64,000 bases of DNA. Source: an uncultured delta proteobacterium. GTDB taxonomy: Bacteria > Desulfobacterota > BSN033 > UBA1163. The stretch is taken from NCBI GenBank assembly GCA_963827685.1, contig CAWHBU010000001.1:128001-192000 (forward strand), given 5' to 3'. A program made the translations under genes and the position numbers. The first letter of the stretch is position 1; the number at the start of each line of letters is the position of its first letter. Positions 852-51,003 of this stretch are shown here, in pieces. The notes under the pieces were generated by a model, which saw nothing but the letters and a program-made list of their open reading frames with translations, ran no database searches and was not told where the DNA came from.

Positions 852-864
852 TGCAATCTTCCAT

Positions 865-937
865 AGGTTGAGGCTTAGGTTAAGGCTAAGGGGAAAAAAT
901 TCATTTTAACCCTCAACCTAAACCTTAACCTCAACCT
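865..937. repeat. Inverted-repeat element with 6-nt periodic arms (AGGYTR)n...(YAACCT)n
   Basis: AGGTTG AGGCTT AGGTTA AGGCTA AGG ... CCTCAACCTAAACCTTAACCTCAACCT; CTTCC at 858-862 and 936-940. Confidence 0.85.
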
Positions 938-946
938 TCCTGACAA

Positions 947-2350
947 TTAGGCCGCCTTATTTAATCGATTGGATTCCAGGGTGGCGATGAAGGCGTCGAT
1001 CTTATTTCTTGTATCCACTTCCGAATACGATGTGATATCGATGATATCACTTTCAAGAATCAGGGAAGGAAGCTCTCTGTAAACCTTTTCCTTCTTTCCG
1101 GCTTTCCCTATCATATAGACTGGGATCGGTTTATATATTTCGGCCAGTTGGTGCAACTGCCAGATCAGGCCTACGTGCCAGGTTCGACACGAAAAGGCTT
1201 CATGCATAACAATTCCATCAATCTTGTACTCTTCGATCCAGTTGATTAAGCGTTCCACATCGGGCTCTGATCCCGGCCTTTTCTTGGCTTTGTCATACCA
1301 GAAGGTCCAATATCCGAGCCATCTCCATGCCAGATGCTCGATGGGATCTTTGGTTTCCGGGATATCCATCTCATTGAGAGGAGCGACCATTCGATAGGTT
1401 GTCTCCACAGGGAACGAGGCCCCCTTGCTGTTAAAGTAATTGAAATCGGTCAAGGCAAACCAGGCAGGTAATCCACCTCCCCACATAAGTCTATATTTTT
1501 CGTTTTCAACCTCTCCCTCACCCTTGGCGATCTTCTCCTCCAATTCTTTTTTCAGGCCCATGAAGAAATCATAAGCCTCCTGGGTGGCCATCATGTAGTT
1601 TAATGGTACCATGGTATTCATTGCATCACCGGTTCCCATGGGACAAGGCACAGCCTTTCGAAGGCTATAGGTTTCATCGATCAGGTTCCAGGTTCGATCG
1701 CTTAAACCAACCAGTTCTCTCAAACGATCGTAATCCATCTTCTTTTTGGTCTGCTCTTCAAGAAAGGCCACCAGTCCGCGCAATTGTTTGACGATATATG
1801 TGTGGTAGTAGCCCCAGACTTCTCTGTGATCCTGATTCCTCTGAAACAGGGGATAGGGAAGGTCTATATTGTAGATCGGGACATCCTGCATAAATTGCTG
1901 GGAGGCCTGATACCATTTCGACCTTGGATCACAGAGGATCTGTCCGCTGGATATCATCATATCAGGCCTTGCCTGTCCGCCCCAGGGGGCATCGGGTGGC
2001 ATTTGGCCCAATTCTTCTCTCCACTGATCAAACCCGATCCCGCAAAGGGCATAGGTGCACAGGGAGCGCGAAAGACCCAATGACTCTGCCCTCTGAAGAA
2101 ATCTTTCCGCATCCCTCTTTGCTCCGCATACACCAGCATATTGCTCTGTCCATATAGGGAGCACATCCATGGCCCGGAAGATCTCTTCATGATGGCAGAC
2201 GATAAAGGTATAGGCTATTTTTTGTTTTCCCTCTGCCCGTGCCTGGAGGGTTCTAGTAATAAATTCCCTTGCAATTCGGCTAATAGATGCAGCCGCCTGG
2301 GTTGCCGTCACCCTCTTTTTCGGTTTTGCCTCTCTTTGTTCCTCAGCCAT
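947..2350 (-). CDS. HGD-D family Fe-S subunit (BzdO/BcrB-like)
   Basis: LSRSLCTY, LCDPRSKWYQ, YKIDGIVMHEAFSCR, LESD...IDAFI motifs of the 2-hydroxyglutaryl-CoA dehydratase D family. Confidence 0.85.
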   Translation of the reverse strand: MAEEQREAKPKKRVTATQAAASISRIAREFITRTLQARAEGKQKIAYTFIVCHHEEIFRAMDVLPIWTEQYAGVCGAKRDAERFLQRAESLGLSRSLCTYALCGIGFDQWREELGQMPPDAPWGGQARPDMMISSGQILCDPRSKWYQASQQFMQDVPIYNIDLPYPLFQRNQDHREVWGYYHTYIVKQLRGLVAFLEEQTKKKMDYDRLRELVGLSDRTWNLIDETYSLRKAVPCPMGTGDAMNTMVPLNYMMATQEAYDFFMGLKKELEEKIAKGEGEVENEKYRLMWGGGLPAWFALTDFNYFNSKGASFPVETTYRMVAPLNEMDIPETKDPIEHLAWRWLGYWTFWYDKAKKRPGSEPDVERLINWIEEYKIDGIVMHEAFSCRTWHVGLIWQLHQLAEIYKPIPVYMIGKAGKKEKVYRELPSLILESDIIDITSYSEVDTRNKIDAFIATLESNRLNKAA

Positions 2351-2380
2351 ACTCTAAACCCTCCTTGTTCAGAATCCATG

Positions 2381-3541
2381 CTAGCTGATCATCTCCAGAA
2401 AGGCCTGGATTCTGGTTCTGAGCTGACCAATTGTACCCGCAGAATAAATATCCTCCAGATGAAGAAGTGGAACATTAATAGACTTGTAGTAGGCTTTTCT
2501 TGCAGGGACTTCAAAGCCAAAGGGATCACAGTATTTGTAGACATAAAGAATGGCGCCATCCACCTTGAATTCCCTGGCATAGGCCCCGATATCACCAAAT
2601 CGAGAGGCGATATCCCCTTCAAAGGTACCCGCCTTGTTTTCCCTGTACGTCTTGGGGCAATTGATTTTATCGAGATACCGATGGGCCAGTGCATTGATTG
2701 GATCTCCTCCTTCATCGGTCCGTGGAAAATAATCCCTCGCTCCGTTGCAGATGGTATCGGCCACCACATTGCCCCCGAGTTCTTCTACGAGCTTGATGAG
2801 TTCAATATTATCGAGACAGGCACCGTCGATAAATATTCGAGGGCCTTCCTTAAGTGGAGATTTCTTTCTTTTCCCAATCTCCGCCAAAACCTGATCAACC
2901 AGAGTATTAGATTCGCCAATGGGTAAACCTGATCCGGCTGTTAACACCATCGTTAATTCTGTTCCAGAGATAAGTGGCGGATCTGCCTTTCTGAATTCAT
3001 AAAGGGCTCTCACCTTATCCCTGTTTTCATTATAGGTTCGAATGGTCTTACCCAGATCACCATCGGTGATTGCCTTTCCAGCAAACTTCTCCAGACTTTT
3101 CCTGAAGGTGTTTAGCTCCGCATGAAAGAATTCAGAGGACGATTCGTCGCAGACAGTAGGAATATTGATAAAGTGAAAATAGGAATAGGGAAGAGAATAA
3201 CTCCAGGCACTATAGCTTCGCACCATGCTATCACAGCCATGGGGAATGACCATACCAGAGAGAAAGTCATATTTTTGTTTCACCGAGAGGTCGAAGCAGC
3301 TACGGTAATAGGGGCATACAATGGTTTCAAGGAGTGTGTCTCCTTTCGTAATGGGCTCATGGATATTTCCTCTCACCCGAAAAGGGATACATCCGGCTGC
3401 TGTGATGATTTCCAAAGGGACAAAGGAACAGATATAGCCGATTATCTTTTTCCCTTTCTTTTTCAGCTCCTTCGCCCTCAGCCCGTAATCCTCATAATAT
3501 TTTTCTACCGTGTTTAAAGTGCTGCTCCGTCTTCCATTCAT
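2381..3541 (-). CDS. HGD-D family Fe-S subunit (BzdN/BcrC-like)
   Basis: IGYICSFVPLEII, VCPYYRS, PHGCDS, VADTICNG, KYCDPFGFE, GQLRTRIQAFLEM. Confidence 0.88.
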   Translation of the reverse strand: MNGRRSSTLNTVEKYYEDYGLRAKELKKKGKKIIGYICSFVPLEIITAAGCIPFRVRGNIHEPITKGDTLLETIVCPYYRSCFDLSVKQKYDFLSGMVIPHGCDSMVRSYSAWSYSLPYSYFHFINIPTVCDESSSEFFHAELNTFRKSLEKFAGKAITDGDLGKTIRTYNENRDKVRALYEFRKADPPLISGTELTMVLTAGSGLPIGESNTLVDQVLAEIGKRKKSPLKEGPRIFIDGACLDNIELIKLVEELGGNVVADTICNGARDYFPRTDEGGDPINALAHRYLDKINCPKTYRENKAGTFEGDIASRFGDIGAYAREFKVDGAILYVYKYCDPFGFEVPARKAYYKSINVPLLHLEDIYSAGTIGQLRTRIQAFLEMIS

Positions 3542-3648
3542 CGACTTTCTCCTTTAAACTCTAACGTCCTTTCTAATGTAATATATACATGATAGAGATT
3601 TATGTTTCAATCTCATTGTCCTTAATTGTAATTCAGATATTTGACCAT

Positions 3649-3787
3649 AGACTTCAGACGTCAGACTGAATTTTTTATCGCAAAACAGCAGTTGCGAGGT
3701 ATAGGCTGTAACTCCTAACGACTTATGACTTGCGCTCTCGCGAAATAGAAAAGCCTGGCGTCTAAAGTCTGAAGTCAGGCGTCTGAA
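3649..3787. repeat. Inverted-repeat element with 7-nt periodic arms (TCAGACN)n...(GTCTGAA)n
   Basis: AGACTTCAGACGTCAGACTGA ... GTCTAAAGTCTGAAGTCAGGCGTCTGAA, just after the stop of the 3795 gene. Confidence 0.75.
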
Positions 3788-3794
3788 TCACAGA

Positions 3795-4571
3795 TTATCC
3801 TAAGCTTTCCATAGCGATAATCGCCGCACCTAACGCAGCCGTCATATGGGGATTTTGTGGTACAAGGATATCATGACCTCTGATTTCCTTTAAAGCCCGC
3901 ACAAGACCTACATCTCTTGCACCGCCACCCACCATGGCCACATCCTGTTCCACACCCATTCTCTCCGCCAAACTGTTGATCTGGGCGGCAAGAGCTCTGT
4001 GTATGCCTGCCAGAAGATCTTCCTTTGTGACTTCTTGAGAGAGTCGGGAGATCGCCTCTGACTCCGAAAAAACTGCACATCCGGTGTTAAACTCCACTCT
4101 CTTTTCAGATTTCAAAGACAACTCACCAATCTCTTCCACCTTGACCTGGAGAACCTTGGCAATGACTTGCAGGATTCTGCCGCTTCCTCCAGCGCATTTG
4201 CCGCTCAATAAAAAATTGGTCACACTTCCATTACCATCGATGCGGAGGACCTTCGTATAAAGATCTCCCACGTCAATGACGGTTTTCACAGAAGGGAGAA
4301 GAGAGGAAACGCCTTTTGCATGGCAGACGATATCCGGCTTGACTTCGTCTGCGAAGGCCACCAGTTTTGATCCATATCCGGTAGCGACAGCCCGGGAGAT
4401 ATCACCTGGTGATCTCCCTGTCTGGGAAAGTAATTCCTCTCTTATCCTCTCGGCCGTAAGCTTGAAATCACCCCCAGAAGGACACTCAAAAGAACCCAAG
4501 GGTCCTTGATTACCGAGGACGATCCCTTTTGATAAGGCTGACCCGATATCAATACCCAATACAAAAACCAT
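3795..4571 (-). CDS. Second, divergent ASKHA ATPase/activator subunit (BzdP/BcrD-like)
   Basis: GIDIGS, ATGYG, CHAKG, KCAGGSG, GCAVFSESE; degenerate DVGDLYTK where the paralog has DIGGQD. Start moved to MVFVLG. Confidence 0.85.
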   Translation of the reverse strand: MVFVLGIDIGSALSKGIVLGNQGPLGSFECPSGGDFKLTAERIREELLSQTGRSPGDISRAVATGYGSKLVAFADEVKPDIVCHAKGVSSLLPSVKTVIDVGDLYTKVLRIDGNGSVTNFLLSGKCAGGSGRILQVIAKVLQVKVEEIGELSLKSEKRVEFNTGCAVFSESEAISRLSQEVTKEDLLAGIHRALAAQINSLAERMGVEQDVAMVGGGARDVGLVRALKEIRGHDILVPQNPHMTAALGAAIIAMESLG

Positions 4572-4668
4572 CTTCCCTCTAACATTCGTTAAATTCGTTA
4601 TTGTTCGCGCCATTCGTTTACATAAATAACACAAATCCCAAACCCCCTCAAACTACCCTCAAAAAATC

Positions 4669-4714
4669 TGTCATTGCAAGGAGTCCCGCATGAACGGGAC
4701 GGCGAATCAATCTC
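4669..4714. repeat. GTCATTGC...CAATCTC type palindromic repeat
   Basis: TGTCATTGCAAGGA-GTCCCG catgaa CGGGAC-GGCGAATCAATCTC; related opposite-orientation copy at 26497-26577. Confidence 0.55.
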
Positions 4715-4845
4715 AGGAAATGAATTGAGGAGGCGACTCAGTCGCGCTGACCTCTTGAATCATTGTTTGACATGTTCTACCAAAAAGTATAAATCTTCAT
4801 ATTAGCCATAACATTTCCGCAGATGGTTGTACTAATACAAACGCA

Positions 4846-5373
4846 TTAAGTAATGTTACATAGCCTACGAATCTTTTGACAAGACCATGAGCGAGTTGTT
4901 TTACAAACGACAGACCAAAGATTATCAAGGTTTTCAAACCAACGGTTGGTGGTGGATTCATAGCGAACACTGCGCCAAATCCGTTCTTGCACGTTTAATC
5001 CCGGTTGATACGGGGGTAAATATTCGATATGGAGCCTCGGATGTTTTTTAAGAAATTGTTCGATGGGATCGCCTCTGTGCCAGCGGGCCCTGTCGACATA
5101 AAGCCAAATGGTATATTCTTTAAACCTTCCATAGAGGTGGCGCAAAAGTTTGAGAAACCCTTCTCTATCCCCCCGTTTTGTCTGAATCATGCCATAGCGT
5201 CCAAGCAAAGGATTGACCCACCCAGAGATATTCAAACGGATACGATGCTGGCTGGTCGTGGGAATCTTAAGACGCTTTCCTTTTTTCGCCCAGCCCCGGC
5301 TAAGCCTGGGGTGCATCGTAAAGCCTGTCTCATCCTGGAATACAATTGTCTCTTTTGGCCCCAGGGACTCAAG
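4846..5373 (-). CDS. IS630 transposase DDE catalytic part (orfB, reached by frameshift)
   Basis: Frame is open upstream of the tracked ATG: LESLGPKETIVFQDETGF..., then YVDRARWH and LPPYQPGLNVQERIW (D,D,E). Confidence 0.88.
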   Translation of the reverse strand, partial: LESLGPKETIVFQDETGFTMHPRLSRGWAKKGKRLKIPTTSQHRIRLNISGWVNPLLGRYGMIQTKRGDREGFLKLLRHLYGRFKEYTIWLYVDRARWHRGDPIEQFLKKHPRLHIEYLPPYQPGLNVQERIWRSVRYESTTNRWFENLDNLWSVVCKTTRSWSCQKIRRLCNIT

Positions 5374-5890
5374 TTTTTTTTAAAGCCCGCTGGAACTTTC
5401 GGGCTTCTTGGCTTTGTGCTTGAAGATAAGAATAACTCGCTCTCTTTAACCGATAACCCAAATGATGCATCCAGCGTTGGGCTTGCCGCACCTTCAGGTT
5501 TATCCCGAAAGACCGTTTCAGATGAATCGCAACCGTTGGCCCATCCCATTGAGTCCGGTTTAAACCAAATTCCCGCGGAGACTTCTCTAAGTGTCCCTCC
5601 AGCACCCTTTGAATCTTTGTCTCTAACCGTGGAGGCCTTCCCGATCTTGGCTTGGATTTTAAGAACTCTAAGCCGTCTTTGTTCACCCCGTGAATCCATC
5701 GGCTTAAACTCATCCGGGTCAACCCTAACACCTCGGTTATCCATCCCGGACGTTGCCCTTCAAGCACCAGGAGTAAGGCGGCTATCTTTATGCCTATCCA
5801 AGCCCCTGATATTTGTTCGGCTAATGCTAATAAACGCTCTTTATTGGCCTCTTTATGCTCTAAGATTAATGTGGGATTTTTCATGCCCAC
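5369..5890 (-). CDS. IS630 transposase N-terminal HTH part (orfA)
   Basis: SRWIHGVNKDGLEFL-KPRSGRPPRL, SPREFG..WDG, WMHHLGY; ends ALKKT at an A8 run. Confidence 0.9.
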   Translation of the reverse strand: MGMKNPTLILEHKEANKERLLALAEQISGAWIGIKIAALLLVLEGQRPGWITEVLGLTRMSLSRWIHGVNKDGLEFLKSKPRSGRPPRLETKIQRVLEGHLEKSPREFGLNRTQWDGPTVAIHLKRSFGINLKVRQAQRWMHHLGYRLKRASYSYLQAQSQEARKFQRALKKT

Positions 5891-5964
5891 ATATTAACAT
5901 AAATAAACTGTTATGTCACTTTATTTAGGACGTTTGTATTAATATAAGAAACAATGTTAAACGC

Positions 5965-6537: not shown

Positions 6538-6546
6538 AGGATATAG

Positions 6547-6572
6547 GCGTTTAAGAGGCTGCAGCCGGCGGT
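6547..6572 (+). other. Truncated attC-like remnant after ogt
   Basis: GCGTTTAAG matches 8/9 the reverse complement of GTTAAACGC (5956-5964, a GTTRRRY site just before the ogt ATG); followed by AGGCTGCAGCCGGCG, which resembles an attC left arm. Confidence 0.5.
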
Positions 6573-9749: not shown

Positions 9750-9755
9750 AAAGAG

Positions 9756-9871
9756 AGGGTTCAAGGGGCTTGGGGCCAAGGGTTCAAGAGATTTACTGGT
9801 CAAAGAATAAATCTTGGTCTTTTCACTCGAACCCTGGAACCCCTGCCTGCCGGCAGGCAGGCTTGAACCCT
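9756..9871. repeat. Inverted-repeat element with 8-nt periodic arms containing a CCTGCC palindrome
   Basis: AGGGTTCAAG...CTTGAACCCT perfect outer IR; CCTGCCTGCCGGCAGGCAGG at 9842-9861 interrupts the right arm. Confidence 0.85.
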
Positions 9872-9959
9872 GGGCAAAGGGTTTTCGATAACTTAGAAGA
9901 AGGTCTTTACTCTTTCATTGCCGGAATCACCAGCACGAAGTGCAGTAAAGGATTGAGCC

Positions 9960-18759: not shown

Positions 18760-18790
18760 GTCTCCCTCCTGTAAATCTCAAATCACTATT

Positions 18791-18886
18791 CTCGTGTCCG
18801 TGTCGCGTGTTACGTGCCTGCACGCCGTAGGCCGTTTCGGCACGTAGGCGTGTCCGGACACGGAAGACGGTCACGGATACGGGTCC
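18791..18886. repeat. Periodic inverted-repeat element (CGTGTC)n...(GACACG)n with nested CCTGC-type hairpin
   Basis: CGTGTCCGTGTCGCGTGTTACGTG...CGGACACGGAAGACGGTCACGGATACGG; CCAT at 18756-18759 and 18886-18889. Confidence 0.8.
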
Positions 18887-19692: not shown

Positions 19693-19785
19693 ATCTGCCC
19701 CGTAAGGTAGTAGGGATCGTTCCCCGAGCGAATCGGTTTTTCAGGCTATCTGTGTAATCTTTTTTTTCAATCTGTGTAATCATTT

Positions 19786-20856
19786 TTAGTATGAAAATGG
19801 CCAGAGTCTAAAGCCGGATCGGATGATGCGCCATACCTCAGCTAATCCTTTGGGTTCGAAAATAATGAATAGTACAATGGCCAACCCAAACACAAATTCC
19901 CGAAGGGGTGCGATAGTCAGCGCGATCTTGGTGAGCCCTTCAATATTCATAAAGAACTGTGTGGCTTGGCTCAGTATTTCATTTAAGGCGGTGATGAAAA
20001 TGGCACCCAACACAGCGCCGGGAATACTTCCCAGACCTCCGATGATGATCATCGCTATGTATTCGACAGAGAGGGACAACGTATAGGGCTCAGGGGTGAT
20101 GCTGCCTATATAATAAGCCGCCAGTCCTCCGGCAAACCCTGCATAGAAAGAACTGATTGCGAAGGAGAGGAGTTTATATTTGAAGATGGGAATGCCCATG
20201 CCCTCCGCAGCCCTGTCATTATCACGGATGGCAATAAAGGCACGGCCGTATCGGGTCCGTATGAGGTTGACCGCAATCCATGTCAAGACGACAAAGCAGC
20301 CAAAGATGACATAATAGAAGGCGCGATCCCCTTTTACATCGAGCCCAAAGAGAGAGGCCCGAGGCAACATAATACCCTCTGGCCCCTTGGTGAGGCTTTC
20401 CCATGAAACGAAGAGGTATTGAAGAATAAACTGACCTGCCAGAGTGGCAATGGTTAGGTAGAGGTGTTTGAGGCGGACAGATGGAATCCCAAAAACCACG
20501 CCCACGAGGGCAGTGATGACGCCTGCAGAGATAACGGAAAGCCAGAATGGAAAACCCACAGCGGTTGCAAGAATGGCCGCTGCATAGGCTCCCACACCAA
20601 AAAAAGCACCATGGCCAAGAGAGATCTGACCCGTATATCCGATGAGGATATTGAGGCCTATGGCAGCAATGGCGGCCATTCCGATGTGATTGACCACATA
20701 CAGAGTATAATGACTGCTGATGAGTGGAACGATTACAAAAAGGAGGAAAAGTCCAATCCATAACCACAGCCTACCAAAATCTGTCCCAAAGATGGTGAGC
20801 TCTTCTCCATACTGTTCATTAAATTTTCCACAAGGATGTAATTTCAGCTTTCGCAT
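19786..20856 (-). CDS. Branched-chain-type ABC permease (LivM-like)
   Basis: GLNILIGYTGQISLGHGAFFGVGAY, GRAFIAIRDN; start moved to MRKLK after GGAGGG. Confidence 0.9.
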   Translation of the reverse strand: MRKLKLHPCGKFNEQYGEELTIFGTDFGRLWLWIGLFLLFVIVPLISSHYTLYVVNHIGMAAIAAIGLNILIGYTGQISLGHGAFFGVGAYAAAILATAVGFPFWLSVISAGVITALVGVVFGIPSVRLKHLYLTIATLAGQFILQYLFVSWESLTKGPEGIMLPRASLFGLDVKGDRAFYYVIFGCFVVLTWIAVNLIRTRYGRAFIAIRDNDRAAEGMGIPIFKYKLLSFAISSFYAGFAGGLAAYYIGSITPEPYTLSLSVEYIAMIIIGGLGSIPGAVLGAIFITALNEILSQATQFFMNIEGLTKIALTIAPLREFVFGLAIVLFIIFEPKGLAEVWRIIRSGFRLWPFSY

Positions 20857-20875: not shown

Positions 20876-21054
20876 CGCCCCCAATAAATGACGGCGCTAC
20901 AAATCTCGTGTCCATGACTCTGTAATTTGCACAATGAACAATGAACGATGGACTATGAACTTATTGTTTATTGTTCATCGTTCTTTCATCTCCCTATCTC
21001 CCGATCACCCCCTCCTCCCCTCCCCCTTTGAAAGGGGGAGGGAAAGGGTGGGGG
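20876..21054. repeat. Repeat cluster: GTAG-REP, 7-nt periodic IR (ATGAACA)n and C/G-rich hairpin
   Basis: CGCCCCCAATAAATGACGGCGCTAC; AATGAACAATGAACGATGGACTATGAAC / TTGTTTATTGTTCATCGTTC; CTCCCCTTTGAAAGGGGGAG. Confidence 0.8.
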
Positions 21055-24209: not shown

Positions 24210-24294
24210 TCCGCGATTGGAATAGTGGAATGTTGGAACATTAGGTCAATGGGTTTTGACCATGATTCCATCATTCCATCATTCCGCCATTCCG
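24210..24294. repeat. Inverted-repeat element with 8-nt periodic arms (TGGAATRN)n...(CATTCCAT)n
   Basis: TTGGAATAGTGGAATGTTGGAAC ... ATTCCATCATTCCATCATTCCGCCATTCCG; TCCG at both ends. Confidence 0.85.
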
Positions 24295-25137
24295 TCAAAA
24301 TCTTGTGGCATCACCCAGATAGGCCTTGATGACCTCGGGGTGATTTTGGATGACTTCCGGGGTACCCTCTGCGATCTTTTCCCCGAAATTCAAAACCATA
24401 ATTCGTTGTGAAACACTCATGACAACGGACATATCATGTTCCACCAGGATGATGGTCTGACCCCATGCCGAGTTTAACTCCAGCAAAAAACGAACCATAT
24501 CTTCCTTTTCCTCAAGGGTCATTCCGGCAAAGGGTTCATCAAGCACTAAAAGTTTTGGTTCCAAGGCTAAAGCCCGGCCCAGCTCAACCCTCTTTCTCAT
24601 CCCATACGGCAAGGAGCCCACCGGTTTTTTTCGGATCGACTGCATTTCCAGAAAGTCGATCAATTCTTCCAAAACCTGACGGTGTCGAACTTCTTCCTTT
24701 CGAACGGATGAGGAAAAGATGGAGGCTTTTCCAATTCCATAATTGCAATAAAGATGACGAGCCAAAAGCATATTCGCCAATACGGTGATCCCCGGAAAGA
24801 GCTCAATATTCTGGAATGTCCTTCCAATCCCTTTCTTCGTGATCTCATGGGGGTGATGACCTGTAATCTCTTCACCGTTGAAAAGGATCTGTCCTTTTTG
24901 TGGATGGTAATAACCTGTAATACAGTTCATGAGGCTTGTCTTTCCAGCACCATTCGGCCCGATGACGCTGACCAATTCCCCCGTGTGAACGTTGAGATCC
25001 ACATCATGGAGTGCCATCACACCCCCGAAATTCAAAAACACTCTTTTCACCTCCAACTCAGCCTGTCGTTTCTCAGGCTGAGTGGAGGCATAGATACTGG
25101 GTTGACCTCGAAATGCCTTCATCGATTTTCCCTTCAA
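24295..25137 (-). CDS. ABC transporter ATP-binding protein (LivG-like)
   Basis: GPNGAGKTS, RTFQNIELF, LPYG, LDEP. Confidence 0.92.
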   Translation of the reverse strand: MKGKSMKAFRGQPSIYASTQPEKRQAELEVKRVFLNFGGVMALHDVDLNVHTGELVSVIGPNGAGKTSLMNCITGYYHPQKGQILFNGEEITGHHPHEITKKGIGRTFQNIELFPGITVLANMLLARHLYCNYGIGKASIFSSSVRKEEVRHRQVLEELIDFLEMQSIRKKPVGSLPYGMRKRVELGRALALEPKLLVLDEPFAGMTLEEKEDMVRFLLELNSAWGQTIILVEHDMSVVMSVSQRIMVLNFGEKIAEGTPEVIQNHPEVIKAYLGDATRF

Positions 25138-30522: not shown

Positions 30523-30544
30523 GCGCTCATCTCCGATGACAAGA

Positions 30545-30715
30545 TCCAATCACCCAATTCGAATCCCGCCAAGGCGGGACCAAATAAATTCCAGTTACCC
30601 AATGTCCAAACAACCCACACACCTTTCGCGTCTTTTTTTCCAAAAATTCGGCCATTCCTGCCTGCCGGCAGGCAGGGGAATCTTGGTCATGAGTTGATGA
30701 CGGGTGTTTGGAAAT
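30545..30715. repeat. Degenerate 7-nt periodic IR element with nested palindromes
   Basis: CCAATCACCCAAT..CAAATAAATTCCAGTTACCCAATGTCCAAAC; TCCCGCCAAGGCGGGA; CCTGCCTGCCGGCAGGCAGG at 30657-30676. Confidence 0.7.
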
Positions 30716-30733
30716 GGCTTATTTAAATTCAAA

Positions 30734-37329: not shown

Positions 37330-37360
37330 CAACCCTCCTTTCCCCCGACAAGTCGGCGGA

Positions 37361-37530
37361 AATTCCAAGCTCCAAATTACAAATCCCAAATAAATTCCAA
37401 ATTTCAATATCAAATGACCAAAATGGCTTTATTGGGAATTTTGAATTTTGGTCATTGGGAATTATTTGTCATTTGGCCTGCCTGCGCGAAGCCGCTTCGG
37501 CGAAGGCAGGCGCTTGGGATTTGATGCTTA
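37361..37530. repeat. 7-nt periodic IR element (NNCAAAT)n...(ATTTGNN)n with nested CCTGCC variant
   Basis: AAATTCCAAGCTCCAAATTACAAATCCCAAATAAATTCCAAA...TTTGGTCATTGGGAATTATTTGTCATTTGG; insert at 37477-37510. Confidence 0.85.
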
Positions 37531-40014: not shown

Positions 40015-40464
40015 TTATATGAAGAGATAGATAAGATGGAGAATGATATTGGCATAAACTCCCGCCAACACATCATCCAAGACAACTCCCCATCCTCCCT
40101 TTAATCTCATCTCCAGACTGCGGATGGGAAAGGGTTTGAGAATATCAAAAAACCGGAAGAGAAAAAAACCCATTATGATAAAGGGGAGCGTTTTGGGAAC
40201 CCAGAGCATGGTGATCAGAAAACCGATTATCTCATCGATGACGATCCTCTGATCATCTTTTTTCCCAAAGAATATTTCGGCATTTTCTGAAATCCAAACG
40301 GAGAGAAAGAAAAAACCAATGAGAGTAATTTCATAGAGTGGTGAAGGGATCTCGGAAAGGAAGTAGTAGATAGGGATTGCGACGAGGGTTCCCAGAGTCC
40401 CTGGGGCAACGGGAGAGTACCCGACTCCAAATCCGGTGGCGAGGAAGAGGAAGAAATGATTCAT
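40015..40464 (-). CDS. pgpA: Phosphatidylglycerophosphatase A
   Basis: APGTLGT, IVIDEIIG, FRFFDILKPFPI, GVVLDDVLAG. Confidence 0.95.
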   Translation of the reverse strand: MNHFFLFLATGFGVGYSPVAPGTLGTLVAIPIYYFLSEIPSPLYEITLIGFFFLSVWISENAEIFFGKKDDQRIVIDEIIGFLITMLWVPKTLPFIIMGFFLFRFFDILKPFPIRSLEMRLKGGWGVVLDDVLAGVYANIILHLIYLFI

Positions 40465-40465
40465 C

Positions 40466-40567
40466 TTCGTATTGCGGATTTCGGAATTTTTAAACCAAGG
40501 AAAGAAATCATAGGCTAATATTAAAAAGATTCCGCATTCTGCAATCCGCATTCCGCATTTGCTCATC
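40466..40567. repeat. 7-nt periodic IR element (TGCGGAW)n/(TTCCGCA)n, 102 bp, in frame with pgpA
   Basis: ATTGCGGATTTCGGAAT ... ATTCCGCATTCTGCAATCCGCATTCCGCAT; TCATC at 40461-40465 and 40563-40567. Confidence 0.85.
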
Positions 40568-41321
40568 AGAGTCTGACTATGACTCCCTTTTCCTTCAAGT
40601 ATGTTTTGACCTGACCAATGGTGAATTCTCGATAATGGAAGATAGAAGCCGCGAGCACGGCGTCGGCCTTTCCGAGAACGAGACCTTCATAAAGATGTTG
40701 GAGATTGCCAACGCCCCCTGAGGCAATGACAGGAATACTCCCCTGCTCTGAAATGGTTCGCGTCAATTCAATGTCGTAGCCATCTTTTGTTCCATCCCGA
40801 TCCATGCTCGTCAGTAAGATCTCACCCGCTCCCATCTCCTCCATCTTCTTTGCCCAATGGATCGCATCAATTCCTGTTGGGACCCTTCCTCCGTGGGTAT
40901 AAACTTCCCAGCTCTCCCCTTTTCTTTTTGCATCAATGGCGATCACGATACATTGGCTTCCAAAACGTTTCGAGGCTCTTTCTACAAAATGTGGATCCTT
41001 CACAGCAGCGGTATTGATCGATACCTTATCCGCTCCAGCCTTAAGAAGCTTACGAATATCCTCCAAACGTCTGACCCCGCCTCCCACCGTGAGGGGAATA
41101 AAGATTTCCTCCGCCGTCCTGCGAACAACATCAATGAGAATGTTCCTCTCCTCATACGAGGCCGTGATATCTAAAAAAGCGATTTCATCCGCACCTTGTT
41201 CATCATAGACTTTAGCATTCTCCACCGGGTCGCCGGCATCCTTCAGGTCTGCAAACTGAGTTCCCTTCACCACCCTTCCGCTTTTTACATCCAGACAGGG
41301 GATAATTCTTTTTGCCAGCAT
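40566..41321 (-). CDS. hisF: Imidazole glycerol phosphate synthase cyclase subunit
   Basis: [33 protein letters not shown]. Confidence 0.97.
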
Positions 41322-41333
41322 CTTAGGTTCCTT

Positions 41334-41412
41334 AATTCAGAATTAAGGAGCCAGAATTCAGAATGGACTATGTTTTTCCTATTCTGGCTTCTGGCTTCTG
41401 CCTTCTGCCTTC
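41334..41412. repeat. 7-nt periodic IR element (CAGAATT)n...(TTCTGGC)n overlapping the hisA 3' end
   Basis: AATTCAGAATTAAGGAGCCAGAATTCAGAAT ... ATTCTGGCTTCTGGCTTCTGCCTTCTGCCTTCT. Confidence 0.8.
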
Positions 41413-42131
41413 TTAACTAATCGTATGGCTTCTTCCAAATCGAGGCCCCCTGTATAGAGGGCGCGACCTACAATCACTCCGATGACTCCATCCGGTTCTA
41501 ACTCCAGGAGATGTTCAATGTCCTCAATTCGCGAAACTCCACCTGAAGCAATCACTGGGATCGAAGTGGATCGAGCTAAGCTCTTGGTTGACTGAACGTT
41601 TAAACCTGTGCCCATCCCGTCTCTCTCGATATCTGTGAAGATAATCGCTGAAAGGCCCATCCCTTCAAACTGATGTGTCAGATCGATCGCTTCCAAAGAA
41701 ACCACCTCATTCCAGCTCTGGATAGCAACCTTTCCTCCTTTGGCGTCGATTCCGAGGATCACCTTTTCGGGAAACCGATGGCACGCCTCCTCAATCAAGG
41801 AACGATTTTGGAAAGCCGCCGTTCCTAAGATGACCCATCTCACTCCGGATGAAAGATAATCCTCGATGGTGGCCAGATCACGAATGCCTCCGCCCACTTC
41901 GATCGGAATTTGGACGGATTGGCTGATCTCCTTGATCAGAGATTGATGAATAGGCCTCCCCGCCACGGCTCCGTTAAGATCAACCACATGAAGCCTCTCT
42001 GCTCCCTTTGACTCCCATTGCTTGGCCATTTCAACAGGATGTTCTGAATAAACTGATTCCTGATCCATCCTGCCCTGAGAGAGTCTGACACATCTCCCAT
42101 CTTTCAGGTCTACAGCAGGGATAACGATCAA
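41379..42131 (-). CDS. hisA: ProFAR isomerase
   Basis: IPAVDLKDGRCVRL, HVVDLNGA, VGGGIR, TDIERDG, ASGGV. Confidence 0.96.
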   Translation of the reverse strand: MIVIPAVDLKDGRCVRLSQGRMDQESVYSEHPVEMAKQWESKGAERLHVVDLNGAVAGRPIHQSLIKEISQSVQIPIEVGGGIRDLATIEDYLSSGVRWVILGTAAFQNRSLIEEACHRFPEKVILGIDAKGGKVAIQSWNEVVSLEAIDLTHQFEGMGLSAIIFTDIERDGMGTGLNVQSTKSLARSTSIPVIASGGVSRIEDIEHLLELEPDGVIGVIVGRALYTGGLDLEEAIRLVKKAEGRSQKPE

Positions 42132-42818: not shown

Positions 42819-43472
42819 TCACTTCTTAGCTCCAATCTTCTTGGCGTCCTCCAAAAATTGTGCAATCCCTTTATCGGTCAGTGGATGTTTCACCATCTGC
42901 TCGATGATGGCGGGAGGGATTGTCACAATTTCTGCCCCCAACATTCCAGCCTCCATGACATGAATGGGATTCCGGACACTGGCGACAATAATCTGTGTTT
43001 CTATGTTTGGATAGTTCCCGTAGATTCCCTTGATCTGCCGAATCAGCTCAAGTCCGTTGAAACTGATATCGTCGAGCCTTCCTAAAAAAGGACAAACATA
43101 AGTGGCGCCAGCCTTTGCAGCCAAAATAGCCTGGCTGGCTGAAAAGAGGAGGGTAACGTTTGTATGAATCCTTTCTGAGGAAAGGATCTTGACTGTTTTT
43201 AAACCTTCTGGAGTGATGGGAATTTTGATGACAATCTCTTCTCCCCAGGTAGCCATGACCTTTGCTTCCTTCACCATCTCCCCACTGGTCGTTCCTGTCA
43301 CTTCCACGTTGACCGGTCCCTTCACTTCCTCTGAAATCTTTCGGATCAGCGACTCTGTCTCCTCTCCTTCTTTTGCAAGAAGTGTAGGATTGGTCGTCAC
43401 TCCATCGACCAAGCCAAGCGCCTTCGCCTTCCTGATCTCGTTGAGATTCGCCGTATCGATGAAGATCTTCAC
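42819..43472 (-). CDS. Transaldolase/fructose-6-phosphate aldolase (short type)
   Basis: IFIDTAN, GVTTNPTL, VIKIP, PFLGRLDD, ASVR. Confidence 0.93.
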   Translation of the reverse strand: MKIFIDTANLNEIRKAKALGLVDGVTTNPTLLAKEGEETESLIRKISEEVKGPVNVEVTGTTSGEMVKEAKVMATWGEEIVIKIPITPEGLKTVKILSSERIHTNVTLLFSASQAILAAKAGATYVCPFLGRLDDISFNGLELIRQIKGIYGNYPNIETQIIVASVRNPIHVMEAGMLGAEIVTIPPAIIEQMVKHPLTDKGIAQFLEDAKKIGAKK

Positions 43473-43500
43473 GTTTCAACCTCCTCTCTTATTAAAAAAT

Positions 43501-43707
43501 CGCAAAGGGCATAGAGTCAAGCGCATAGCGCCTAAAATCCCAAATCACAAAATCCAAATTACAAATAAGCTCCAAATTCCAATTTCAAATGACCAAAACG
43601 ATTTTGTTTGAGATTTCGAATTTGGACCGTTGGAATTTGTTTGTTATTTGGTGCTTATGATTTGGTGCTTCCATGTATGCTATGCTCCAGGCGCTTTGCG
43701 CTATGCT
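43501..43707. repeat. Nested periodic IR elements: (GCATAGC)n arms enclosing (CAAAT)n arms
   Basis: Outer CGCAAAGGGCATAGAG..GCGCATAGCG / TGCTATGCTCC..CGCTTTGCGCTATGC; inner AAATCCCAAATCACAAA... / ...TTTGGTGCTTATGATTTGGTGCTT. Confidence 0.88.
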
Positions 43708-43716
43708 GTTTATTGA

Positions 43717-44593: not shown

Positions 44594-44650
44594 GTAGCGT
44601 CGGCATTTATTGCCGACGCTCTCTTCACCCCCAATAAATGAGGGCGCTAC
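44594..44650. repeat. GTAG-type REP doublet
   Basis: GTAGCGTCGGCATTTATTGCCGACG ... CACCCCAATAAATGAGGGCGCTAC. Confidence 0.85.
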
Positions 44651-45294: not shown

Positions 45295-45312
45295 GGTTCT
45301 CTCACTGAACAC

Positions 45313-45410
45313 CAGGGTTCGAGGGTTCAAGGATTCGTGGGTTCAAGTTTAAGTAATTTAAAGAAACCATTTTACTTGACCGCTGGAACCCTGGACCCCT
45401 AGAACCCTCA
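45313..45410. repeat. 8-nt periodic IR element (GGGTTCRA)n...(TGGAACCC)n
   Basis: GGGTTCGAGGGTTCAAGGATTCGTGGGTTCAAG ... CTTGACCGCTGGAACCCTGGACCCCTAGAACCCT; same family as 9756-9871. Confidence 0.85.
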
Positions 45411-45414
45411 TCAT

Positions 45415-46008
45415 TTATAGAATTCCTTTGGTTGATGGAATTTGAGAGGCCCGCTCATCAAAAGAGACCGCCTCTCTCAGCGCCCTTCCAAATCCTTTGA
45501 ACACAGCTTCTACCATATGATGGCTATTTCTCCCATAAAGGAGGTTGATGTGAAGGGTGATCCTCGCATGATTGCTAAGAGCCTTGAAGAACTCCTCCAC
45601 TAACTCGGGGTCAAAGGTCCCGATTCTCGATCTTCTTAGTTTCATCTGAAAGACAAGGCAAGGCCTCATTGAAAGATCCAATGCAACGGAGACTAACGTT
45701 TCATCCATTGGAATCATGGCCATCCCGTATCTTTGGATACCTTTCGCCTCTCCAATGGCCTTTCTGATCCCATCCCCAAGACAGATGCCCACGTCCTCCA
45801 CGGTGTGGTGTGCATCTACCCCGATATCGCCCTTTGCTTTGAGGGAGAGGTCCATGCGGCTGTGATAGGCCAACAGGCTGAGCATGTGATCGAAGAAAGG
45901 AATTCCAGTCTTGATCGAATGTTTTCCGTTTCCATCCAGATTTAGTTTTAAGACAACCGCTGTCTCCTTTGTCTTCCGCTTCACCTCTGCCTTGCGATTC
46001 CGTTTCAT
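45415..46008 (-). CDS. hisB: Imidazoleglycerol-phosphate dehydratase
   Basis: TGIPFFDHML, DAHHTVEDVG, PMDE, NSHHMVEAVFK. Confidence 0.97.
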   Translation of the reverse strand: MKRNRKAEVKRKTKETAVVLKLNLDGNGKHSIKTGIPFFDHMLSLLAYHSRMDLSLKAKGDIGVDAHHTVEDVGICLGDGIRKAIGEAKGIQRYGMAMIPMDETLVSVALDLSMRPCLVFQMKLRRSRIGTFDPELVEEFFKALSNHARITLHINLLYGRNSHHMVEAVFKGFGRALREAVSFDERASQIPSTKGIL

Positions 46009-47333
46009 CTTTTCTCCCTGCCCTGAATGCTACGTCGTTCAGGGTCCGTCCTCTTCTGAATCGATTGATAGTGTCCTTCCAATCCTTCCCACTCGGCAAA
46101 TCTCTTGACATCTTTCTCAAACCGCTCCAATGCACCTCGTGTAAAACTCAGCAGATTGGTCCTCTTGATAAAATCCTCCACCCCCAAGGGTGAAGAGAAC
46201 CGAGCTGTGCCGGCTGTGGGAAGAATATGGTTGGGCCCTGCCATATAATCTCCAATAGCCTCAGGCGCATAGGGGCCAAGAAAGACGGCACCTGCGTGTC
46301 GCACACTTTTTATTAGCGAGAGAGGTCTCGAAACAGCAAGCTCCAAATGCTCCGGAGCAATCCGGTTCACCCACTGCATTGCCTGCTCGAGATTTTTGAC
46401 AATCAGAATCGCACCTCTTCGATCCAGGCTTTCAGAGGCCACTTTCCTCCTTTTTAGAGAGGAAAGTTGTCTCTCCACTTCTTTCTTTACTTCCCTTCCG
46501 AATGCTTCAGAGCTGGTAATCAGAATGGCAAGCGCCATTTCATCATGCTCAGCCTGGGAGATGAGATCTGCTGCGACAAAGGAAGAAGGCGTGCTCTCAT
46601 CGGAGACGATCACAATCTCACTTGGCCCAGCCACCATATCGATATCTACCTCGCCGTAGACCAATCTCTTGGCCGCTGCCACATATTGATTTCCCGGTCC
46701 CACAATCTTGTCCACCTTGGAAATCGATTTCGTCCCATAGGCCAGAGCGGCAACAGCCTGAACGCCTCCTACCCGATAGATTCGATCCACCCCTGCCAAA
46801 TCCGCTGCGACCAGGACAGCAGGACTGATCCCCTCTTTCCGGGGGGGAGTCACCATGAGAATTTCCTGAACCCCCGCCACCTTCGCAGGGATGGCCGCCA
46901 TGAGAACGGTCGAAGGATAAGAGGCTTTTCCACCGGGAACATAGATGCCTACCCTCTCTAAGGGCCTCATCACCTGCTCAAGCCGAATCCCTCTCTCTCC
47001 TGCCTTCAATGATGGGATTAATCTCTTGCTCATAAGGTGATGAAACTTTTGAATCCGCTGGGTTGCCTTCTTGAGTGTTCCTAAAAAATCCCGAGGGACC
47101 CCTCTGTAAGCCTCTTTCACCTCGCTTCTCTTCACTTGGAGTTGATGGATCGGAATTCGTAAGCCGTCGAAGACTTGAGTGTAATGAACGAGAGCTTCAT
47201 CTCCTCGTTTTCTCACATCCTCCAATATGGAACGGACTTTCTTTTCGAACCGAAGGCTATTCCGAGCCATTCTTCCTTCCACCTCGGAGAGGTATCTCTC
47301 AAATCCTTTTTCTCCAGCTCGAAAAACTCTCAC
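46005..47333 (-). CDS. hisD: Histidinol dehydrogenase
   Basis: [43 protein letters not shown]. Confidence 0.97.
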
Positions 47334-48592
47334 TCTTCTCCCTCTTTCACCCTTTTAATATTCGCTCCGAGGTTGGCCAATTTTTTGTCCAGTCCCTCAT
47401 ACCCTCGGTCTAAGTGATAGACTCTGGAGACCTCCGTCACACCCTCTGAAGCCAATCCGGCCAGAACGAGGGAGGCACTGGCTCTTAAATCACTCGCCAT
47501 CACCGGTGCTCCACTTAAGCTTTCCACACCCTGAATGATGGCTGAATCGCCTTGGATGCGAATATCGGCTCCCATTCTTCTCAGTTCGCTCACATGGATA
47601 AATCGATTTTCGAAGATGGTTTCGGAAATGACACTCAACCCTTTTGCCATGGACATCAAGACCATGAACTGGGCCTGCATATCCGTTGGGAATCCAGGAT
47701 AAGGTTGCGTCTTGACATCCACGCTCCGAATTCTTTTCGTACCCACCGCCCTGACCCCGTCTCCCTCGGACTCAATCTCCATGCCCGATTCTCTTAATTT
47801 GTGGACAACCATTTCCATTTCAGAAAGAGGACAATGGAGAATCTTTATATTTCCGCGCGTCAGTCCAGCTGCCACCATCAACGTCCCGGCCTCGATCCGA
47901 TCCGGAGTGATCGTATGCTCAACGGCATGAAGCGATTTCACCCCTTCGATCTCGATCACATTCGTCCCTGCACCACTGATCTTTGCCCCCATTTTATTCA
48001 GGACATTTGCTAAGTCAACCACCTCGGGCTCCATGGCAGCATTCTGCAAAGTGGTCTTTCCTTTAGCAAGCGTCGCGGCGATCATCAGATTCTCTGTCCC
48101 AGTAACGGTGACGGTGTCAAAGGAGATATTCGCTCCCCTCAACACGTCGGCCTTTGCCTCGATGTATCCATGACGGAGTTCGATCTTCGCTCCCATGGCC
48201 TCAAGACCCATGAGGTGGAGATTGATCGGCCGTGCGCCAATGGCACATCCTCCTGGAAGAGAAACGGTAGCTCTCTTCATACGAGCCACCAAAGGGCCTA
48301 AGACGAGAATAGATGCCCTCATGGTCTTCACCAAATCATAGGGGGCCTCATCACTGGAGACCTCTGTGGCATTGATCTGATAAACCCCTCCATCCTCCGA
48401 TACTTTTACTCCGAGATTTTTAAGGACCTTGATGATGGTCTGGACGTCCCGCAGGTTCGGAACATTATGGAATCGATTGTCTCCTTCGCTCAGGAGACAG
48501 GAGGCGAAGATCGGAAGGGTGGCGTTCTTTGAGCCGCTCACCCCCACTTCGCCAATTAACCTTTCCCCTCCTCGTATGACGATTTTATCCAT
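47330..48592 (-). CDS. murA: UDP-N-acetylglucosamine 1-carboxyvinyltransferase
   Basis: [36 protein letters not shown]. Confidence 0.98.
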
Positions 48593-49622
48593 TCTTCGCT
48601 CCGTTAAATCCCCCCTTCCCCCCTTTACTAAAGGGGGGAGATGCGGGGATTTTCTGTGCCTTCACGACTCTTTCTGTGCCAGATAAGTCTGGCAGAATTT
48701 GTGGCCTTAGAAAAGCTCCACTGCTCTCGATTTGTTTCGCGACCATTTCGGCCTGGCCCTGACCCACTTCCATCAGGAGCCATCCTCCTCCTCGCAGAGA
48801 GGAAGGAGCTTGAGAGATGAGGCGCCTGTAAAATTCTAATCCGTCCTCTCCTCCATCCAAAGCGATGACGGGTTCATAATCCCTCACCTCTTTAGCCAAA
48901 GACCCGATCTCGGACCGTATAATATAGGGAGGATTAGAAAGAATAAGATCGAAACCCTCTCTCTCTTTTGAAGAGTGAAAGGGATCCAAGAGATCGCCAT
49001 TCACAAATTCTATCTGATGCTGGACGCCCGCCGATTCAGCATTCTCCTTTGCCAAGACAAGAGCGTCTCTTGAGATATCGGTAGCTACCAGAAATATATT
49101 TTTCACCTCTTTCGCCAAGGCGATAGCAATCGCACCGCTTCCCGTCCCTATTTCGAGAACAGATGGGACTCCGCCCAAAGAATTTTCTGAGAGGATCAAC
49201 TCTTCGGCTCTCGCCGCCTTGCAGGCTGCAGTTTGCTCAGAGTTGATACTGAGTGGTACTATTGACCCCGCCTTTACGGGCGGAGTTTGGTACTGTCGAA
49301 GTATCAAGAGGCTTTGTTCAACCAGAAGCTCTGTTTCCGGTCTTGGAATGAGGACCCGAGGGTCCACCTTAAAACCGATCGACCAAAACTCCTGATGTTT
49401 TAAAATGTATTGAAGAGGTTCTCCCGAAATTCTTCTTTGGATCATCTTCTCCAGGGTCTCTCTCTCCCTTTCCTTGAGTGAGCTATGGAAATTCCTATAG
49501 AGCCCTTCTCTGCTGAGATTCAAAGAACGGGCCAGAAGAAGTTCTGCATCCAGCCGAGGACTTTGAATCTGATGATCCTTCAAACGATTCGTCGACCAAT
49601 TGAGGAGTTCTAAAACCGTCAT
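48585..49622 (-). CDS. prmC: Release factor glutamine methyltransferase with a 36-aa repeat-derived insertion
   Basis: [37 protein letters not shown]; follows prfA. Confidence 0.95.
49195..49307. mobile_element. 108-bp composite palindromic element inserted in frame in prmC
   Basis: ATCAA direct repeats at 49195-49199 and 49303-49307; coding strand TTGATACTTCGACAG..CTCAGTATCAACTCTGAGC..GCCGAAGAGTTGAT with two nested hairpins. Confidence 0.8.
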
Positions 49623-49625
49623 TCT

Positions 49626-49803
49626 TAAACCATTCTTCCAAGTGTCAAAGTTCGCACCAAGTGATGAACCGAAGGTGAATCAAGCCCCAATAAAACCCAG
49701 AGTCCCAATGCCAAAAATTGGGTTCCGAATAAATGCATTTTTGAAATCTAAAGTTTGAACTTTGAGCTTCATTTGGCATTTGAGCTTTGAAATTTGGAAT
49801 TCT
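49626..49803. repeat. 7-nt periodic IR element at the prfA/prmC junction
   Basis: CCAAGTGTCAAAG..CCCAATGCCAAA ... TTTGAACTTTGAGCTTCATTTGGCATTTGAGCTTTGAAATTTGGAAT; supplies the prfA C-terminal [10 protein letters not shown]. Confidence 0.75.
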
Positions 49804-50869
49804 CCAATTCTCCTTTCAATATATCTGCTTGATAATGTGTGGTCAATGCATCGATGATCTCCTCGATTTCTCCCTCAAGGATAGATTCCAGTCGATAAAG
49901 GGTCAATCCGATCCGGTGATCAGTCACTCTCCCTTGGGGAAAGTTATAGGTCCGGATGCGTTCGCTTCGTTCTCCTGTCCCCACCTGGTTTCTTCTCTTT
50001 TCCGAAATCTCCGTCTGTTTCTCTTGCTGGGCTTTATCCATTAGCCTCGCCCGAAGGATTTTAAGGGCTTTGGCCTTATTTTTGTGCTGCGACTTTTCAT
50101 CCTGACAGGACACCACGATTCCCGTGGGGAGATGGGTAATCCGCACAGCGGAGTCTGTGGTGTTGACGCTCTGACCTCCCGGTCCCGATGATCTGAAGAT
50201 ATCAATTCGCACATCATTGGCATCGATCTGAACATCCACCTCTTCTGCCTCTGGAAGGATAGCCACGGTCACCGTGGAGGTATGAATACGGCCTTGAGAT
50301 TCTGTGACGGGAACTCTTTGAACCCGGTGGACGCCACTCTCAAATTTCAGTCGACTGTAGACCCCTTTCCCCTCAATCAGGGCGATCATCTCTTTGAACC
50401 CTCCCACACCCGTATAGTGGCGACTCAATATCTCCATGCGCCAGCCTCGTTTTTCAGCAAACTTGGAATACATCCTGAAGAGATCTCCTGCGAAAAGCCC
50501 TGCTTCCTCTCCTCCAGTTCCTGCACGGATTTCAAGCAAGATGTTTTTTTCGTCATAAGGATCTTTGGGGAGAAGCGCCATTTTTAACTCCTCCTCGACC
50601 TTTTCCTTCTGCTGGTTCAACCGATTGACTTCCTCTTTGGCCAACCGTTTCATTTCTTCATCTTCTTCGTTATCAAGGAGGTGCTGGCTTCCTTTGATCT
50701 CCTCTTCCAATTTTTTAAGCCTTCGGTAAAGGTCGACCACCTTTCCCAGTTCGGCATACTCTTTGGCAGCCTTCTGAAATTCATCCTGTTTCGTGATCAA
50801 CTCGGGTTGGCCGAGGAGGTAGGAGAGTGTCTCGTACCGATGCTCGACCTCTTCTAATTTCTCAAACAT
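49769..50869 (-). CDS. prfA: Peptide chain release factor 1
   Basis: PVT tripeptide (VQRVPVTE), GGQ (SGPGGQSVN); start MFEKL. Confidence 0.97.
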
Positions 50870-50881
50870 CTCTTTCCCCTT

Positions 50882-50990
50882 CAAACAATGACAAATGTCA
50901 AAATCCAAAGTTCAAATGAATGTCCAATGGCCTTAATGTCAAAATTTCTTTTTTGGTAAATTTTGTTATTTGAGCTTTGAAATTTGACAT
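50882..50990. repeat. 7-nt periodic IR element (TGTCAAA)n...(TTTGACA)n upstream of prfA
   Basis: ATGACAAATGTCAAAATCCAAAGTTCAAATGAATGTCCAA ... TTTTGTTATTTGAGCTTTGAAATTTGACAT. Confidence 0.85.
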
Positions 50991-51003
50991 TATCCCTTAT
51001 CTT

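Follow-up and report, generated by a model that had tools for sequence, protein, structure and literature searches.

The question raised by the stretch of DNA analyzed here is what kind of element the small hairpins are that lie in its operon spacers, with arms built as tandem arrays of a short unit. The stretch, called the window below, comprises 64,000 nt from the genome of an uncultured delta proteobacterium (GCA_963827685.1, contig CAWHBU010000001.1, positions 128,001–192,000). A sequence-only reading had listed 14 such places and interpreted them as empty scars of mobile cassettes. Here, we propose that they are probably small hairpin cassettes in a gene-less state, from a family that lives in operon spacers and resembles the intervening sequences (IVS) of rRNA. 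The 5.2-Mb genome is labeled G000 and its contigs C1–C5; congener genomes carry G numbers and compared loci L numbers.

The listed places are indeed hairpins, each arm being a tandem array of a short unit in inverted orientation. Eleven of the 14 are solid inverted arrays of 6–9 nt units, and three (40461–40563, 49626–49805, and 30540–30725) are weak. An inverted-repeat search of the window (arms of at least 18 nt, partners within 300 nt) returned 13 pairs, nine of which fall in listed elements, and Tandem Repeats Finder (TRF) located arrays of 6–8 nt units inside the arms. Folded as RNA in the sense of the genes, the ten shortest elements gave z scores from −9.25 to −0.35 against dinucleotide shuffles; the four longest were compared with mononucleotide shuffles (Table 1). 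Long inverted arms capable of forming a stem are present in 11 of the 14 window elements, as they are in all 18 gene-bearing cassettes of this genome described below. Rfam at gathering score gave no match in the window, rRNA included. According to a crude home-made gene caller, 13 of the 35 window spacers of at least 40 nt contain a listed element, so that the hairpins make up a visible share of the intergenic DNA here. Every occupied spacer is flanked by genes of one direction (++ or −−), as had been claimed; the 14th element, 40461–40563, occupies the hisF-to-next-gene junction within the same minus-strand operon. No cargo gene is present in the window, again as had been stated.

Gene-bearing counterparts were found elsewhere in the genome. 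Profile searches matched 18 PF05635 genes (23S_rRNA_IVP; best E value 4.9e-37) and one PF13366 gene (GxxExxY), and the cargo of the cassettes corresponds to TIGR02436, "four helix bundle protein" (E value 3.1e-30). To our knowledge, PF05635/TIGR02436 and PF13366 are large families spread over many phyla, with no known function. A complete cassette consists of a promoterless gene of ~120 amino acids between two inverted arms, each with 3–5 copies of a 6–9 nt unit. The four-helix-bundle cargo is the protein known as S23p from the intervening sequences of 23S rRNA, and a second lineage carries a GxxExxY protein of the PD-(D/E)XK type instead. At a score of at least 12, inverted arms were detected around all 18 PF05635 genes of the genome, compared with 2 of 18 controls. 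The sequence-only reading had mentioned such arms around four-helix-bundle genes of other anaerobes and had proposed a genome scan for genes between paired arms; the link was borne out, since every PF05635 gene is enclosed in this way and several units are those of the window. The arms of the window hairpins at 863, 3645, 40461, 41330, and 43480 are common to cassettes of the same genome, and by eye the same holds for 24210. The units of 9754/45300 and of 18790 occur in gene-bearing cassettes of congeners. The arms mentioned for GxxExxY genes were likewise found: of 121 genomes sampled from the phylum, 38 contain PF13366, and arms built on CACAGA-like units flank the gene at 27 of 29 loci (4 of 29 in the control). 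Several cassettes are laid out as arm–gene–arm–loop–arm′. The protein of the cassette C2:294228 ends in an NKPNEPN-type tail encoded by its own 3′ arm of 9-nt units. The closest relatives of solved structure, 2RLD and 2GSC, have five chains each, and the 2GSC protein is described as a homopentameric toroid in a study on Coxiella (PMC4990558).

The gene-less form is not peculiar to the window. With our own detector of periodic arrays (period 5–9), 969 arrays were found in the whole genome; on contigs C1 and C5, 158 were counted versus 11 after block shuffling. A reverse-complement partner within 1.5 kb at a score of at least 12 was found for 237 of the 969 arrays versus 29 in a reversed-only control. 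Merging yielded 176 elements, of which 138 are gene-less. The distribution of the inter-arm gap is bimodal, with 138 elements at up to 200 nt, none at 200–400 nt, and 10 at 400–500 nt; in 11 elements with gaps of 401–634 nt, an intact four-helix gene lies between the arms. As with miniature inverted-repeat transposable elements (MITEs), most copies are of the gene-less kind. The median arm comprises 3.9 units, and arms of more than five are rare (27 of 276). Unit families were defined by exact consensus units; single-linkage clustering had chained all heptamers together. Two near-identical elements, C3:83564–84033 and C4:127360–127830, have CGTGATT-type arms around ~404 nt, and neither a convincing open reading frame (ORF) nor a PF05635 match was found in these interiors; their cargo could be an RNA.

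Both cassettes and gene-less hairpins occupy transcribed operon spacers, right after the stop codon and co-oriented with the operon. Of the 138 gene-less elements, 136 are intergenic: 117 in co-oriented, 15 in convergent, and 4 in divergent spacers, against a background of 3258, 474, and 499, respectively (total 4231). The median distance from the upstream stop to the element is 6 nt and that from the element to the next start 24 nt, the start-codon distances being approximate because of the crude gene caller; 97 elements are nearer to the stop and 20 nearer to the start. All 18 cassette genes point in the direction of the upstream gene, and 17 of them agree with both neighbors; in these counts, as in the orientation count of the 136-nt family given below, gene direction and replication direction are combined. 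The G-rich arm comes first in 93 elements and second in 21, which was considered as an orientation bias and rejected: an inverted repeat is identical on both strands, and the count reflects only hairpin chirality. A role as intrinsic terminators was also rejected because a T-run follows the 3′ arm about as often as in the background (13 of 119 versus 355 of 3439). Of the 15 gene-less hairpins in convergent spacers, 9 are bordered by a T-run on one side or both, with two chances each, and these may double as terminators.

The association of gene and arms extends beyond this genome. With one cassette protein (C3:653410) as the query, 79 loci were collected from public genomes, and inverted arms at a score of at least 12 were present at 68 of them versus 6 of 79 in the control. 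The unit GCAG[ATG][AG][AG] occurs at least twice upstream of the gene at 20 of 22 loci with at least 62% protein identity and at 5 of 57 below that value, where 8-nt units prevail. The loci at or above 62% are labeled as Thermodesulfobacteriota, Thermodesulfovibrionales, Pseudomonadota, and Chloroflexota-type, Acidobacteriota-type, and Bacteroidota-type bins. The congener loci L041–L043 are 82–89% identical across the whole 2 kb; for L044, labeled as another phylum, only the cassette and its arms are common with this genome. Protein identity correlated with arm 5-mer similarity (Mantel r = 0.49), a value reached by none of 999 permutations. In each of five congeners, 6–17 PF05635 matches were found; of 27 loci examined there, 25 have arms, and the unit tracked the protein type. 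These comparisons show that gene and arms travel together between phyla, each protein lineage keeping its own unit. The unit itself may be under constraint because the consensus is kept at 65–80% protein identity.

Within the genus, the junctions turn over in content. In the his operon of ten congeners, a given junction may hold differing units, single arms, GC-rich hairpins, or nothing. Upstream of a recN-like gene, the content of one junction varies with the species, being cassette X, cassette Y, either of two further hairpins that are empty, or a simple palindrome; two Y copies there are damaged, one disrupted by insertions (L125) and one with half its gene deleted (L127). At a second junction, the alternatives are the cassettes Z and Y and a pair of Y arms that surround an insertion of a REP-associated tyrosine transposase (RAYT) with repetitive extragenic palindromic (REP) sequences. 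At L135 (G012:C192:550–1700), a RAYT-like gene with its own GC-rich REP flanks lies between the arms, and the four-helix gene is gone. From one related species to another, a single junction is thus occupied by differing cassettes or by empty hairpins, and a single cassette is found at differing junctions.

The closest known counterpart is the IVS of 23S rRNA in Coxiella, Leptospira, and others. According to the Coxiella study, the S23p ORF of the IVS is preceded by heptamers in tandem, RNase III excises the element, and it has been regarded as selfish and horizontally moved (PMC4990558). PF05635 genes have also been noted inside cas operons (PMC3936711) and in rRNA insertions of bacteria of the candidate phyla radiation (bioRxiv 2024.02.27.582315). 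The elements described here share with the IVS the PF05635 cargo, the enclosing inverted arms that form a long stem, and the ORF-adjacent tandem heptamers of variable copy number. Unlike the IVS, they reside in spacers of protein-coding operons instead of rRNA helices, the gene is absent from most copies (the window elements hold no PF05635 ORF), each arm as a whole is an array with a unit particular to one protein lineage, and RNase III processing is proposed by analogy only. In a literature search covering main texts, we found no description of such an architecture outside rRNA.

Other systems resemble the elements in part. MITEs are gene-less derivatives that share termini with a few gene-bearing copies. 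The hairpins resemble them in that termini are conserved within a family and are shared with a gene-bearing partner, found in the same genome for five window elements and in congeners for three more. They differ from MITEs in that flanking repeats are at chance level, i.e., there is no target-site duplication, and in that the internal sequence is unconserved except in one 136-nt family; unlike for MITEs, we know of no transposase for these cassettes. Avd of diversity-generating retroelements (DGRs), a pentameric four-helix-bundle ring, is a distant relative of the cargo (NF033474, E value 3.5e-11; the score of 43.3 is below the family cutoff of 80). No reverse transcriptase lies beside the cassettes as in DGRs, and the single RVT_1 match of the genome lies elsewhere. 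TRAP-type proteins are homo-oligomeric rings bound by tandem RNA triplets. They have an unrelated fold and are comparable only in how they work, with tandem short units whose number does not exceed that of the subunits, and in our case binding is inferred from this analogy.

On this basis, the best explanation of the window hairpins is probably that they are the gene-less form of an IVS-like family of small hairpin cassettes residing in operon spacers. The following mechanism can be envisaged. The cargo protein would form a homopentameric ring, each subunit of which binds one repeat unit of the cognate arms, much as TRAP-type rings bind their RNA. The arm length of 3–5 units, rarely above five, would fit such a reading by a pentamer. 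The transcribed stem may be cut by RNase III, by analogy with the rRNA intervening sequences. The gene may enter or leave resident hairpins by recombination between arm arrays, as suggested by the arm–gene–arm–loop–arm′ layout together with the lack of target duplications and of intermediates.

Several observations weigh against this explanation. We know of no DNA-moving enzyme for PF05635, and the binding of the protein to its arms is suggested by analogy. When 58 elements were scanned for gene remnants (gene-less loops of 45–200 nt), only the 11 intact cassettes matched; the gene-less loops, including the single window element in the scan, showed no PF05635 match. The loops are also unrelated within a unit family, though the termini are conserved. 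Because of the absent remnants and the unrelated loops, descent from gene-bearing copies is read from the shared arms only. Several abundant unit families, namely the GGGTTCRA and AATTCCTC 8-mers, the CAAAT type, and CGTGTCC, have no cognate among the 18 genes of this genome, the bin being 94.5% complete; for the CAAAT-type elements, no cognate gene was found among the cassettes of this genome and the congeners examined. The link between unit and protein is in part simple co-inheritance of linked DNA. As a test for G:U-type selection, folding in the sense and antisense directions was compared and was favored in 62 and 53 elements, respectively (Wilcoxon p = 0.14), a difference that is not significant and lends no support to selection on the RNA form. 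The distances to start codons are approximate, as noted above.

Among the alternatives, the one that survives best, though we consider it unlikely, is that the hairpins are REP/REPIN- or MITE-like elements moved by a host Y1 transposase or RAYT, or RNA stem-loops evolved by the host, and that the small genes merely prefer to insert there. REPs, the bacterial interspersed mosaic elements (BIMEs) built from them, and REPINs, the REP-derived hairpins of RAYT systems, also occur as many short intergenic hairpins per genome, between co-oriented genes and with no target duplication, and in REPIN–RAYT systems the same repeats border a cognate gene. Y1_Tnp matches number 25 in the genome (four are weak and RAYT-like), insertions nested in hairpin loops are seen, and the absence of target duplications is as in Y1 elements. 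In addition, the 136-nt CAAAT family behaves as a classical dispersed repeat, with more than 100 matches over the genus and orientations of 34 versus 7. However, arms of the same unit accompany the gene into other phyla with unrelated flanks, and the unit tracks the protein lineage. The cargo is PF05635 or PF13366 and not a Y1 transposase; the arms, unlike REPs, are tandem arrays of short units, with loops unconserved within a family and many unit families per genome. The congener RAYT is bounded by its own GC-rich REPs and is without periodic arms, as judged from the flanks of one RAYT, and the background level of T-runs speaks against intrinsic terminators.

A second alternative, somewhat less probable still, is that each gene-less hairpin is the in-place scar of a full cassette that lost its gene by deletion. 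The half-deleted (L127) and disrupted (L125) cassettes, located where other congeners hold the full cassette, and partial PF05635 matches in congeners speak for it, and in the arm–gene–arm–loop–arm′ layout a single recombination between direct arm copies would excise the gene cleanly. The original term "scars" is thus apt in part only, L127 being one half-deleted case. Against this account stand the remnant-free loops among those scanned, their lack of relatedness within a family, the empty interval between 200 and 400 nt in the gap distribution, and the AACTCCG-consensus family, in which 19 empty elements stand against one cassette with the unit (C3:1226884).

The mechanism of the sequence-only reading itself was that a cassette, on inserting at the ribosome-binding site (RBS) or start codon, makes use of the initiation signal of the host and leaves the downstream gene with a restored copy. 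All eight short repeats that it gave as brackets are literally present, the arm abuts the downstream ATG at some junctions, and in several cases the upstream copy shares letters with the stop codon, in a context like TAATG or TGATG. Nevertheless, this mechanism is very improbable, since over 136 gene-less elements a shared flank word of at least 5 nt occurs in 24 (17.6%) versus 15.0 ± 2.9% of mismatched flank pairs and one of at least 4 nt in 49.3% versus 49.0%, the elements are anchored to the stop codon, and at the one readable junction, from hisH to the next gene, the RBS and ATG are conserved in congeners outside the variable element; the apparent duplication of RBS or ATG is a chance pattern.

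The individual elements interpreted above as gene-less cassettes, together with a further repeat, are listed in Table 1.

Table 1. Periodic hairpins and a tandem repeat of the window. Fold z scores are in gene sense against dinucleotide shuffles unless stated otherwise; "own" refers to cassettes of the same genome.
Position	Strand	Feature	Fold z	Further observations
863–938	−	Gene-less hairpin, AGGTTR 6-nt unit	−9.25 (minimum free energy −43.6 kcal/mol)	Fills the spacer from the stop at 947 to the next gene; arms match own cassette C4:128670 (score 19)
3645–3790	−	TCAGAC-type arms, loop of ~90 nt	−3.33	Arms of own cassette C2:735734 (score 14.5)
9754–9876	+	GGGTTCRA 8-nt unit, nested GC palindrome at ~9843–9862	−2.31	Gene-bearing cognate cassette only in congeners G004 and G011
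18790–18886	−	CGTGTCC unit, nested GC-rich palindrome	−2.53	Unit is that of cassette Y in congeners
19738–19786	.	22-nt tandem repeat, 2.2 copies (TRF)		Outside the earlier list
20931–20983	−	ATGAACA 7-nt unit hairpin	−3.75	No cognate cassette among those examined
24210–24297	−	TGGAATNN 8-nt unit hairpin	−4.31	Unit shared, by eye, with own cassette C2:768311
30540–30725	−	AT-rich composite with nested GC palindromes, weakly periodic	−3.2 (mononucleotide shuffles)	
37355–37525	−	Copy of dispersed CAAAT-type repeat family, GC palindrome	−5.5 (mononucleotide shuffles)	Family dispersed over all congeners
40461–40563	−	TGCGGAA 7-nt array, good 5′ array, decayed 3′ arm	−0.35 (fold not significant)	Array shared with own cassettes C4:715292 (score 21) and C3:738009 (score 17)
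41330–41415	−	GAAGGCAG/CAGAA-unit hairpin	−4.45	Own cassette C3:653410 (score 18)
43480–43716	−	GCATAGC-unit hairpin, CAAAT-family 136-nt element nested in loop (43536–43671)	−5.3 (mononucleotide shuffles)	Outer arm matches own cassette C2:785167 (score 13.5); hairpin without the 136-nt element in congeners L013, L017, and L018
45300–45412	−	GGGTTCRA 8-nt unit hairpin in hisB-like/hisH-like spacer	−3.27	Orthologues in L013 and L015; 3′ arm alone in L016; other units in other congeners
49626–49805	−	CAAA-type array, weak partner	−0.5 (mononucleotide shuffles; hairpin not supported)	
50875–50995	−	AT-rich 7-nt unit hairpin, 24-nt arms, 88% complementary	−1.77	

The hairpin at 41330 is informative about gene ends and turnover. 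The last codons of the hisA-like gene are formed by its 5′ arm (41379–41415), and the gene product is ~10 residues longer than in congeners; arm arrays can thus alter the ends of genes. In metagenome contigs of a relative, 16 nt replaces the 90-nt hairpin (41330–41421). In two of four metagenome runs (X3 and X5), word depth peaks over the hairpin bins 40408–40611, 41224–41427, and 43468–43671, reaching ~4–9 times the typical bin (~100). The repeats are thus present in multiple copies in these communities, and because of these peaks they probably break assemblies.

The 22-nt motif at 19738–19786 recurs in the downstream flank of the single GxxExxY gene of the genome (C1:21551). Because of its similarity to the CACAGA-type arms that GxxExxY genes have in the phylum, the repeat may be the remnant arm of a GxxExxY-type cassette. 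GC-rich palindromes of the CCTGCC...GGCAGG type are nested in hairpin loops at ~9843–9862, 30661–30680, and 37372–37405, as well as in congener cassette arms (L125 and L133). A separate C-rich/G-rich hairpin family, CCCCTCCCC...GGGGAGGGG, is represented at 21008–21052 and is found in L013, L019, and L020 at orthologous junctions that hold other elements in the window. A nonperiodic palindromic hairpin lies at 44594–44650, and in G021 and G007 the recN-like junction is taken up by a small palindrome of a similar kind. Elsewhere in the genome, 18 of the Y1_Tnp matches have identical scores, E values, and ORF lengths (163 amino acids), besides seven further matches, and look like one recently active IS200/IS605-type insertion sequence.

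A broader and clearly less secure proposal is that the S23p proteins and, in parallel, the GxxExxY nucleases might be sequence-specific readers of tandem repeats with a lineage-specific code of 6–9 nt. Protein and arms would then constitute a selfish system that needs no transposase and colonizes transcribed hairpins, in mRNA spacers as well as rRNA helices, across bacterial phyla. When the Coxiella paper appeared in 2016, the rRNA intervening sequences had been known for more than 25 years, and they have gone unexplained (PMC4990558); if the proposal is true, their nature would finally be explained. The gene-less copies would in that case be genome-wide, protein-addressable stem-loops able to split or retune operon transcripts. 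The data tie together both protein families, the rRNA IVS, and the swarm of gene-less operon hairpins through a common design, the inverted arrays of a lineage-specific short unit. They provide a simple genomic signature for annotating such elements and a hypothesis testable at the bench, namely that a protein ring may read its own repeats.

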